This document shows, piece by piece, positions 15,001 to 18,000 of a stretch of DNA of 47,837 bases; within the stretch, counting starts at the first letter, position 1, and every line of letters starts with the position of its first letter. Position numbers: made by a program. Source of the DNA: a virus (taxonomy: Duplodnaviria; Heunggongvirae; Uroviricota; Caudoviricetes); IMG/VR virus record IMGVR_UViG_2713896798_000007; one strand, given 5' to 3'.

Positions 15001-18000
15001 TTCAAACTTCTGCAACTCGGATTCGATTACTGGACTCCGGTCGGTGGGGCGATCACTCCTCGCGAGCGAAAACTGGTGTCCGGTTTCGTTGATTATCTGT
15101 GCGAATCAGTAGGCCGGGAACATACGCCAGCTCTGAGCGAAGCCGCAGAGCAATATCTGAATACAGTTGCGACACGCAGAACCCGAGATACAGCATTGCT
15201 AAAGTCGTTTGAGGCTTTCCGCGAGTGGGTAACCATTCAGGCAGGATTTTACACCGAGCATATTTATCCTGATGGTAGTCGTGGGCGCAGGGCAAAATCT
15301 ATCGCATTTGCGAACATGGACGAAACCGAGTTTCAGCAGGTTTATAAATCTGTACTGAATGTGCTGTGGAACTGGATCCTGTTCCGTAAATTTTCCTCTC
15401 CGGAGGAAGTCGAAAATGTGGCCGCGCAGCTGCTGGAGTTTGCGTAATGGTGGATTTACGTAAAGCGGCAAAAGGTCAGATGTGTACAGTCAGAATTCCT
15501 GGCTACTGCAATCACAATCCCGAAACGTCCGTGCTGGCGCATTACAGGCTGGCGGGGACGTGTGGAACAGCGACAAAACCACACGATATGCAGGCGGCAA
15601 TTGCCTGTAGCTCATGCCACGATTTAATCGACGGGCGGGTAAAAACCAGCGATTACACCAAAGAAGAATTGCGCCTGATGCATGCAGAAGGTGTTTTTCG
15701 CACACAAGAAATCTGGAGAAAGGAAGGTTATTTATGATTTACCCAACAAATACAGGCAAAAGCGGGGAACGCCTTCGTCTCACCACGCTGGAAAGTGTCT
15801 GGATTCAGGGAAAACTGCGCATGTGGGGGCGCTGGTCGTATATTGGCGGCGGTAAGACGGGAAATATGTTCAACCAGTTGCTGACCTCTAAAAAGCTGAC
15901 AAAAACGGCAATTAACGAGGCGCTCCGGAGGATGAAAAAAGCAGGTTTGGACAAACCTGAACTTGAGGCTTTTTTGCGGGATATGATCAACGGCAAGCAA
16001 AAAAGCTGGCTGGTGCATTGTACTGATGCAGAGGCGTTATGCATTGATCGGGTGATTAGTGAAGTGCTGGCAGAACACCCAGGATTGATTTGTATCCTCC
16101 GGCAACGATATGAAGGGAGGGGGATGACTAAGCGAAAAATGGCTGAATTGCTGAATGATTCACACCCTGAGTGGTGTTTTCGGACGTGCTGCAGTCGGGT
16201 AGATGTATGGCTAAATCTTGCTGAATATATGCTCTATCTACCGATGCGTGATGCATTCTCTTCCGGGGATCTAAAAACCGTCTGTTGACTCAATCTGTTA
16301 TCCGGGGCTATATTCCTCACGCGCCAGCAAAATCTGGCGTCGGGATTGGAACCCCGGATAGAGACCGCGACAGACACACGCCGCGAGCGTGTTTTTTATT
16401 GTCGTATGCACGCGCACATCTGAATTATGGTGGGGCGCATGGGGGAGCTGAAAAGCTCGCCGGTCGGTTTCCCGGTAGTTCCAACCCTGTGCGTCTCACC
16501 ACCCGATGATTGGAACCTGATGGTGGTGATAGTTTAGAAACCACCAGAGGGCGTCATTATGACAACTCAAATTTCTGTTGAAACTCTCTCCCCGATCACC
16601 CATAACCGGATTCCTGTTATTACCACCGAACTTTTGGCGCAGCTTTACGGCACTGAGCCGGTGCGTATTCGCCAGAATCATCATGAGAACAAAGTACGCT
16701 TCGTTGAAGGGAAACACTTTTTCAAAGTTGTTGGTAATGACCTTAAAGAATTGCGGGTAGCTTTAAACTACTCACAAAATCCCATCTCTCCCAAAGCCCG
16801 CTCCCTTATCCTCTGGACAGAACGCGGAGCAGCCCGCCACGCAAAAATGCTCGAAACCGATCAGGCGTGGGATGTGTTCGAAAAACTGGAAGACTGCTAT
16901 TTCAGTCAAAAGGATCCGTCAGCGCCAGTTGCATGCCAGAAAAGTTACGACACGCGAGTTCTCTGTTATCAGTGAGGTGGTGTCACTGTTTCCACAATTC
17001 AGTTACGGGATGATGATATTGTTATTTCCCTTGAGTCATGGCTGGAACTGGCGAGAGCCAATGGTTGGTTTGTTGTTCGCAGAGATAAACTGGTGGAAAG
17101 GTTGATGCAGCTTTAAAAAAGTTCTTGCATTTTTGCACATAAACTGCTTCAATTCCGGTACGCTTCGCAAAGCTGTATCGCGAGGCGAACCAAGCGCATG
17201 AACTTTACCAGAACCCGCCATTGAGCGGGTTTTTTATTGCGGAATTAATTACGGACCGTTATTATTCTGCTCCCGGCCCTTTAGCTCAGTGGTGAGAGCG
17301 AGCGACGCATAATCGCCAGGTCGCTGGTTCGAATCCAGTACAACGCGCCACACTTATTTTCCCTGGCTCGCTTTTGCGGGCCTTTTTTTTAAATGTCTCA
17401 CAATTCAGGCGGTTGACTGTTGTCTGGTTTGCGGGGAGTTTGTTAAAAGAAACTGGCATGGTGAATCCCCCTGTGCGGAGGGGCAATCAGCAACCAGGTA
17501 TATGTGATAATCGCGGATTCAGGTGCTGATACTGAATTCACCGGGAGGCACCCGGCACCATGCAAGAAAAAGAATGTGCATGCAAACATGCCCCTCTCCG
17601 GAGGGGCATTTTTTATGGGTAAAAAATGCCCGAATGGGTTCGGGCAATAGCATGAGATACTGATATTGTTGTGTTGTTATCGTGTGGATTTTAACCAGGG
17701 TTTATCAGGCTGCGCAACTGCGTGGCCTTTTTTCATTTCTTGGGCTGTAGTCCCCGTGTGTCATTCAGGCTTCCGGACTACAGCCCACTCCATATCTGAT
17801 TTAATACACTATCCCGGCCGGGAGGAATAATGACATTTAAACATTATGATGTTGTCAGGGCGGCGTCGCCGTCAGACCTTGCGGATGCGCTTGCTCAAAA
17901 AATTCGTGAAGGATGGCAGCCATACGGCGGGCCGTTTTCTTCGTATACGGATGATGGCGCAGCACTTATTCAGGCGATTGTCGCAGAAGGTGATGTGAGC

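Follow-up and report, generated by a model that had tools for sequence, protein, structure and literature searches.

The interval of about 480 bp between the tRNA-like element and nanS-p (17351-17829; the slot) in the stretch of 47,837 nucleotides analysed here (the window) is very probably the unoccupied moron site of a late operon, in an stx-free lambdoid prophage at the Rac site, and carries a pair of convergent sRNA genes. This reading is drawn from Pfam and Rfam matches, from alignment to Stx phages and stx-free prophages, and from the distribution of the site in complete genomes. Such an arrangement is ordinary, has been described before and is widespread, with hundreds of E. coli genome sequences containing it.

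Pfam confirms the gene order of the late region, in which a Q-like antiterminator is followed by pR'/tR', the tRNA-like element, a 480-bp gap, nanS-p, holin, lysozyme and Rz/Rz1. The preliminary description of this DNA had named such an order as the late-region layout of Shiga-toxin phages. The layout of Q, tRNAs, (stx), sRNA pair, nanS-p and lysis genes is indeed recovered in the window, both by the Pfam assignments and by collinear homology to the Stx2 phage P13374 on the two sides of stx. The following features surround the slot:

15734-16288, plus strand: Q-like late antiterminator gene of the DUF1133 family (Pfam), just upstream of the pR'-like promoter
16285-16314, plus strand: pR'-like late promoter (TTGACT, 18-nt spacer, TATATT; 10/12 matches in the promoter scan)
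16308-16360, plus strand: c4-a1b1 match overlapping the IsrK-family RNA (Rfam 50.1 bits, GA 46.7)
16321-16397, plus strand: IsrK-family short pR' transcript of 77 nt, ending in tR' (Rfam isrK 77.5 bits, GA 50)
16376-16392 and T-run, plus strand: tR' terminator of the IsrK-family RNA (terminator scan)
16423-16506, plus strand: C4-type antisense RNA, P1 immI-like (Rfam C4 71 bits, GA 45)
16559-16975, plus strand: ORF6N-domain antirepressor-like ORF, probably truncated (Pfam ORF6N, E=3e-20)
17275-17350, plus strand: chimeric pseudo-tRNA, the 5' part of ileZ and the 3' end of argO joined within the T-arm (comparison with P13374)
17830-19776, plus strand: nanS-p type sialate O-acetylesterase gene (Pfam DUF1737, SASA and DUF6645)
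19913-20092, plus strand: small DUF1378 ORF (Pfam, E=1e-39)
20251-22949, plus strand: IS66-family insertion sequence of 2699 bp (~2.7 kb), splitting a DUF826 gene (Pfam HTH_Tnp_1, TnpB_IS66, DDE_Tnp_IS66)
23162-23377, plus strand: P21-type holin (Pfam Phage_holin_2_1)
23382-23915, plus strand: lysozyme (Pfam Phage_lysozyme)
24186-24755, plus strand: antirepressor gene between R and Rz (Pfam P22_AR_N)
24909-25376, plus strand: Rz (Pfam Phage_lysis)
25129-25314, plus strand: Rz1 (Pfam Rz1)

The dominant match of the Q-like protein is DUF1133 (E=1e-105). Its match to Phage_antitermQ is borderline in Pfam, with 26.9 bits at a cut-off of 26, and its best PDB matches, to the Q protein of phage 21 (6P18/6JNX), are weak (E=0.03). 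The designation as a Q-like antiterminator is a borderline one, taken from this Pfam match and from the position of the gene upstream of pR'/tR'. The pR'-like promoter overlaps the Q stop codon, is the sole sigma-70-like site that a consensus scan returned between 16200 and 20000, and ends 7 nt upstream of the IsrK-like RNA. With an IsrK-family pR' RNA, a C4-type RNA and an antirepressor-like ORF right behind Q, the window resembles IsrK of Gifsy-1 and immI (c4) of phage P1; it differs from this module in that the ORF6N gene appears truncated, as judged here from sequence, and PGAP labels the ORF6N homologue a pseudogene without its C-terminus. The module is situated outside of the flagged slot, with C4 and ORF6N between tR' and the tRNA remnant. 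Homologues of the nanS-p gene carry the annotation 9-O-acetyl-N-acetylneuraminic acid deacetylase. The DUF1378 gene, the IS66-family insertion and the antirepressor gene within the lysis region had been absent from the preliminary description.

To place the slot relative to the stx genes the window was aligned to Stx phages. The Stx2 phage P13374 has Q, ileZ-argN-argO, stx2A, stx2B and a nanS-p homologue in this order, and the window matches it as follows:

17235-17338: ileZ of P13374, 92% identity (blastn)
17319-17391: end of argO and terminator of P13374, up to 50 bp before stx2A, 90% (blastn)
17391-17394: unoccupied junction, the site of the stxAB cassette in Stx2 and Stx1 phages (blastn and MAFFT)
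17394-20100: P13374 from 42 bp past the stx2B stop through nanS-p, 90% overall, ~72-74% in the intergenic part (blastn)

Both flanks of stx are therefore present and abut at 17391/17394, and nothing in the window corresponds to the 1332 bp of P13374 that carry the stx2 promoter region with stx2A and stx2B (blastn). The junction was further compared in a six-way MAFFT alignment, the comparison set being P13374 (Stx2), Stx1_14040, PPwrbA_EC3734 and strain 2013C-3492. The right-hand end of the Stx1 cassette of phage Stx1_14040 falls on the same point, and the empty junction is also found in the stx-free prophages 2013C-3492 and PPwrbA_EC3734. The junction of 2013C-3492 matches the window base for base, yet it stands behind three intact tRNAs. 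Searches of the whole 47.8-kb window for stx remnants (tblastn with Stx1A/B and Stx2A/B, blastn with both cassettes) gave none, the best E-value being 0.064 at a place outside the slot; no stxA and stxB downstream of pR'/Q, as in a Stx-converting phage, are thus contained in the window. As the flanks are contiguous and no remnant is left, the slot is precisely the stx insertion site, unoccupied and free of a scar.

Two claims made beforehand agree with this: that the slot takes the position of stxAB in Stx phages, for which the left flank is 90-92% and the right flank 74-90% identical to the Stx2 phage, and that stx is absent, which tblastn and blastn across the window bear out. It had also been considered that the slot might be an ordinary Q-to-nanS region of non-Stx lambdoid prophages lacking homology to the stx flanks. 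The first half of this is correct and the second is not, as the homology is present.

The interval from stx2B to nanS-p in Stx2 phages (P13374, 933W/Sp5 type) has the same components as the window, namely tRNAs, terminator, an STnc100-family sRNA, a convergent anti-sRNA, both hairpins and nanS-p. Unlike these phages the window is without the stxAB cassette (1332 bp), and its anti-sRNA has the 5' region of AgvB and not that of AsxR (AsxR 43 bits, GA 63). In the stx-free prophages 2013C-3492 and PPwrbA_EC3734 the cluster ileZ-argN-argO abuts the sRNA pair, and the 5' half of their STnc100 RNA is near-identical to the window; they differ from it in having three intact tRNAs and a different minus-strand anti-sRNA.

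The slot had been described as some 480 bp without a sizeable ORF and with only hairpins. The former is confirmed, since the largest ORFs wholly inside it have 54 and 51 codons; a mechanical TTG ORF of 66 codons (17286-17486, minus strand) extends across the left boundary into the tRNA remnant. As to the latter, the hairpins are real, but according to Rfam the slot also encodes an STnc100-family sRNA and AgvB. Its features are:

17365-17390, plus strand: terminator hairpin that follows the tRNA cluster and closes the left stx flank (terminator scan; fold z -3.7)
17427-17620, plus strand: STnc100-family sRNA gene, EcOnc27 homologue (Rfam RF02076, 146.8 bits, GA 47, model positions 1-206 of 206)
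17621-17682, minus strand: AgvB anti-sRNA gene, GcvB sponge (Rfam RF02702, 96.5 bits, GA 56, model positions 1-62 of 62)
17707-17733, plus strand: terminator-like hairpin overlapping the presumed AgvB promoter region (terminator scan)
17741-17787, plus strand: long hairpin with a 13-bp stem, directly before the ribosome-binding site of nanS-p (fold)

The two sRNA genes are convergent. The STnc100-family gene has a terminator of its own at 17588-17609 with T-run (terminator scan) and folds with z -3.4. AgvB is identical to the Rfam consensus at 62/62 positions, its 5' variable region CGAUAACAACACAACAAUAUC includes the consensus CACAACA of GcvB R1 targets, and its terminator lies at 17646-17627 (fold z -3.75). 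A consensus scan found no sigma-70 promoter in the slot for either RNA, so the sRNA promoters are inferred from conservation alone. The sequence TTGACT at 17413-17418 was considered for such a promoter and rejected, as a properly spaced -10 element for the 5' end defined by Rfam does not accompany it.

Such pairs are known from the lambdoid prophages of O157:H7 Sakai (Sp3, 4, 5, 9, 10, 11, 15, 17), where convergent sRNAs occupy the moron site (Tree et al. 2014, PMC4104026) between the moron coding sequence and a conserved downstream ORF (PMC4104026). The same study defined the GcvB R1 target consensus CACAACA, located AgvB in Sp10 and Sp17 of Sakai, showed for this strain that AgvB pairs with the R1 seed of GcvB and relieves the repression of dppA, and reported that it improves growth in bovine rectal mucus (PMC4104026). 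The Hfq-bound sRNA EcOnc27 corresponds to the STnc100 match downstream of stx2B (PMC12711010; PMC12370729). Like the AgvB loci EcOnc01a/b of Sp10 and Sp17, the window copy holds the CACAACA mimic and a terminator, a likeness established by way of the Rfam consensus, and as in Sp10 and Sp17 it faces a convergent sRNA on the plus strand, with pR' and the tRNAs before it and a conserved esterase ORF behind it. The window differs from these loci by the collapse of its tRNA cluster to a single chimeric pseudo-tRNA and by IS66 downstream. In O157:H7 genomes the slot is found with 99.5% identity.

The first 58 nt of this pseudo-tRNA agree with ileZ of phage P13374 at 56/58 positions, and the last 25 nt with the 3' end of argO of the same phage at 25/25. 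Only two of the seven acceptor-stem pairs can form and U33 is replaced by G, so that neither the paired 7-bp acceptor stem nor the U33 of a functional tRNA is present. The Rfam tRNA model covers the element at model positions 7-64 only, ARAGORN calls no tRNA at 17275-17350, and folding gives no cloverleaf (z -0.97). The element as a real tRNA was rejected based on ARAGORN, the acceptor-stem count and the folding. The comparison with P13374 characterizes it as a non-functional relic, left when 173 bp were deleted between the similar T-arms of ileZ and argO and argN and most of argO were taken out. In other genomes PGAP annotates the identical chimeric sequence as tRNA-Met.

Beyond the sRNA genes the slot region is rich in structure. 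The terminator scan found 9 terminator-like sites between 16200 and 20000, compared to 3.8 +/- 1.7 expected, and 6 of them lie inside the slot; folding z-scores against shuffled controls range from -3.4 to -6.7. The terminator at 17365-17390 has a counterpart with 90% identity in P13374, located 50 bp upstream of stx2A. The lowest z-score belongs to positions 17700-17800 with the hairpins 17707-17733 and 17741-17787 (-42.9 kcal/mol, z -6.7). The stem core of the hairpin 17707-17733 is kept in all six aligned loci, with a different outer stem base in 2013C-3492 and PPwrbA_EC3734, and the hairpin 17741-17787 is conserved only in part among the relatives. Structure and conservation of this kind might hint at a so far undescribed cis-regulatory unit formed by the two hairpins, or else at a regulatory RNA derived from the ileZ/argO remnant, a reading that we regard as improbable. 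If it were true, the unit at 17707-17787 would gate nanS-p and the lysis genes, or it would drive or insulate the AgvB promoter.

Whether the prophage lost stx or belongs to stx-free relatives can be judged from the distribution of the junction and from the identity of its flanks. STEC strains are known to lose stx, and such a loss had been suggested for this prophage. A Stx-converting ancestor could have lost stxAB by precise deletion or by recombinational replacement from an stx-free prophage: the cassette flanks are homologous to those of Stx2 and Stx1 phages and come together only a few bases from the edges of the cassette, and the recombinational deletion in the adjoining tRNA cluster marks the region as recombinogenic. 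Such a history is nevertheless quite improbable, as no stx remnant is left at the protein or the nucleotide level and the junction is identical to that of an stx-free prophage with three intact tRNAs (2013C-3492). We counted the empty junction with a 236-bp probe spanning the tRNA, the terminator, the junction and the sRNA start, and at a coverage of at least 80% it is present in approximately 991 of 5426 complete E. coli genomes. The junction span of the sampled matches is 236-469 bp, which leaves no room for an stx-sized cassette of 1.3 kb. The slot is present as a whole in 697 genomes, and the 4.2-kb stretch from Q to nanS-p is 99-99.9% identical in cattle strains, O121, O45, O103 and O157. 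Identity of the flanks is 97-100% with stx-free prophages and only 72-92% with Stx phages.

A further argument arises from synthetic probes, in which the 3' end of stx2B or stx1B was fused to the right flank of the window and searched against the 5426 genomes. In none of these does stx2B adjoin an AgvB-type slot with high identity; one genome alone covers the probe in full, and its identity averages 81.9%. The stx1B probe matched Stx1a phages only by way of a partial flank with 84% identity, and these have a different 5' region of the anti-sRNA. The loss of stx proposed earlier is thus unsupported, since remnants are missing, the stx-free junction is widespread and the flanks are nearer to stx-free prophages; nothing supports a scarless recombinational replacement. 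The other suggestion, that of an stx-negative relative, is favoured by the junction distribution and the flank identities. As the junction is so distributed and no stx-positive AgvB-type slot was found, the prophage reads as an stx-free relative and not as one that has lost stx, and the simplest history would be an stx-free lineage of a shared late-region module.

It might be argued that the slot encodes small proteins, such as ORF45/ORF46 of phage P13374 or the "hypothetical protein" fragments of RefSeq. Mechanical ORFs of 44-54 codons do occur on both strands, and minus-strand ORFs are annotated in the homologous interval. These ORFs, however, overlap full-length and high-scoring matches to structured sRNAs, RefSeq labels them as incomplete pseudogene fragments, variable and indel-rich segments fall inside them among the aligned relatives, and Hfq-bound sRNAs were experimentally mapped to this position in O157 (PMC4104026), which leaves a coding role very improbable. 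That the slot is an inert spacer, with hairpins that arose by chance or are mere transcription terminators, draws on the terminator-like form of several hairpins and is effectively refuted by the Rfam matches (E-values 1e-33 and 1e-18), folding z-scores down to -6.7, conserved blocks common to Stx2, Stx1 and stx-free phages, and the published function of an identical AgvB sequence (PMC4104026).

For the moron site with its sRNA pair a working scheme can be outlined by analogy to the lambdoid paradigm. Late transcription would start at pR' (16285-16314), and during lysogeny it would halt at tR' and yield the 77-nt IsrK-type RNA. Upon induction a Q-modified RNA polymerase would pass tR' and the later terminators, four or five in number (about 17213-17235, 17365-17390, 17588-17616 and 17707-17733), and reach nanS-p and the lysis genes. 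The STnc100/EcOnc27-family sRNA of Hfq type on the plus strand and AgvB on the minus strand, each with a Rho-independent terminator of its own, would presumably be transcribed from their own promoters active in the lysogen. As far as the O157:H7 result can be transferred, AgvB with its CACAACA mimic of GcvB targets would act as a sponge for this core sRNA and relieve the repression of targets such as dppA.

The prophage itself can be assigned to a host and a site. Positions 1-20250 of the window are 99.95% identical to the prophage of the cattle strain 13E0725, which adjoins ttcA and carries intR, xisR, recET, kilR and ydaE-ydaV. This neighbourhood and gene content point to a Rac-site lambdoid prophage, and by its sequence we class the prophage of the window as an stx-free lambdoid prophage of E. 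coli at the Rac site, adjoining ttcA. The IS66 element, flanked by an 8-bp target duplication TCTTGATG, is missing from the 13E0725 prophage. Because it lies between nanS-p and the holin, the working of the late operon on induction is uncertain for the window copy; the operon may be non-functional for lysis, or the expression of the lysis genes may be blunted.

The stx-free lambdoid prophages share the insertion site of stx with the Stx phages, and this site is never truly empty, because a conserved convergent sRNA pair is located there. Annotation pipelines overlook the sRNAs of the slot and place spurious small ORFs over them, and the PGAP label tRNA-Met misnames a broken chimeric tRNA. AgvB is already known to favour fitness for growth in bovine rectal mucus, so that its presence, while not new, bears on the biology of the strain. 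Stx-free prophages of the window type offer Stx phages homologous flanks for recombination.

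The start of the window is the integrase end of a prophage at the Rac site, adjoining ttcA, and positions 1-20250 carry the genes intR, xisR, recET, kilR, ydaE-ydaV, hokD and a doc-family toxin. Over this part (L007 4402-24651) the identity to the related prophage of the cattle strain 13E0725 amounts to 99.95%, compared to only 93.6% over the lysis region (22950-25680). This difference indicates mosaicism. The features regarded here are the following:

16308-16975, module resembling P1 immI or Gifsy-1 IsrK, immediately 3' of Q
16423-16506, C4-type antisense RNA within this module
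17275-17350, chimeric pseudo-tRNA (argO 3' end joined to the 5' part of ileZ)
17707-17787, two strong hairpins, between AgvB and the ribosome-binding site of nanS-p
20251-22949, IS66-family insertion sequence, 2699 bp
26262-28385, intact large terminase gene, 707 aa

The IS66-family element contains three ORFs (HTH_Tnp_1, TnpB_IS66, DDE_Tnp_IS66) and is flanked by an 8-bp target duplication, TCTTGATG. It was inserted into the DUF826 gene, with nanS-p and DUF1378 on one side and the holin on the other, and may exert a polar effect on the lysis genes. The 13E0725 prophage is without this element, though otherwise 99.95% identical. The large terminase gene of 13E0725, unlike that of the window, is interrupted by an element of approximately 10.4 kb (L007 29016-39432), the matching window position being about 27271/27260. 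With its genes for integrase, primase, SSB and a capsid-protease fusion, the interrupting element resembles a satellite.

The module after Q comprises, besides the C4-type RNA, an IsrK/c4-a1b1 RNA, which is the short pR' transcript, and an ORF6N antirepressor-like ORF whose copies in relatives are marked as truncated by PGAP.

In the pseudo-tRNA the acceptor stem is broken and U33 is replaced by G. The identical sequence in RefSeq genomes (e.g. RM8352, 13E0725) is labeled by PGAP as a 71-nt tRNA-Met, which is likely an annotation error.

Regarding the two hairpins, the first is terminator-like on the + strand, and its stem core is kept in every aligned locus, Stx and non-Stx; conservation of the second, whose stem measures 13 bp, is only partial.

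The phage PPyecE_EH1910, a relative, is stx-free like the window and possesses an identical STnc100/AgvB pair of convergent sRNAs, but differs by the cargo filling the slot, i.e. the stx insertion site, upstream of this pair (L002 717-3486), with genes for DNA methylase, plasmid-stabilisation-type toxin, regulator and TerB-like protein. This non-stx cargo shows that the slot is a general moron hotspot.
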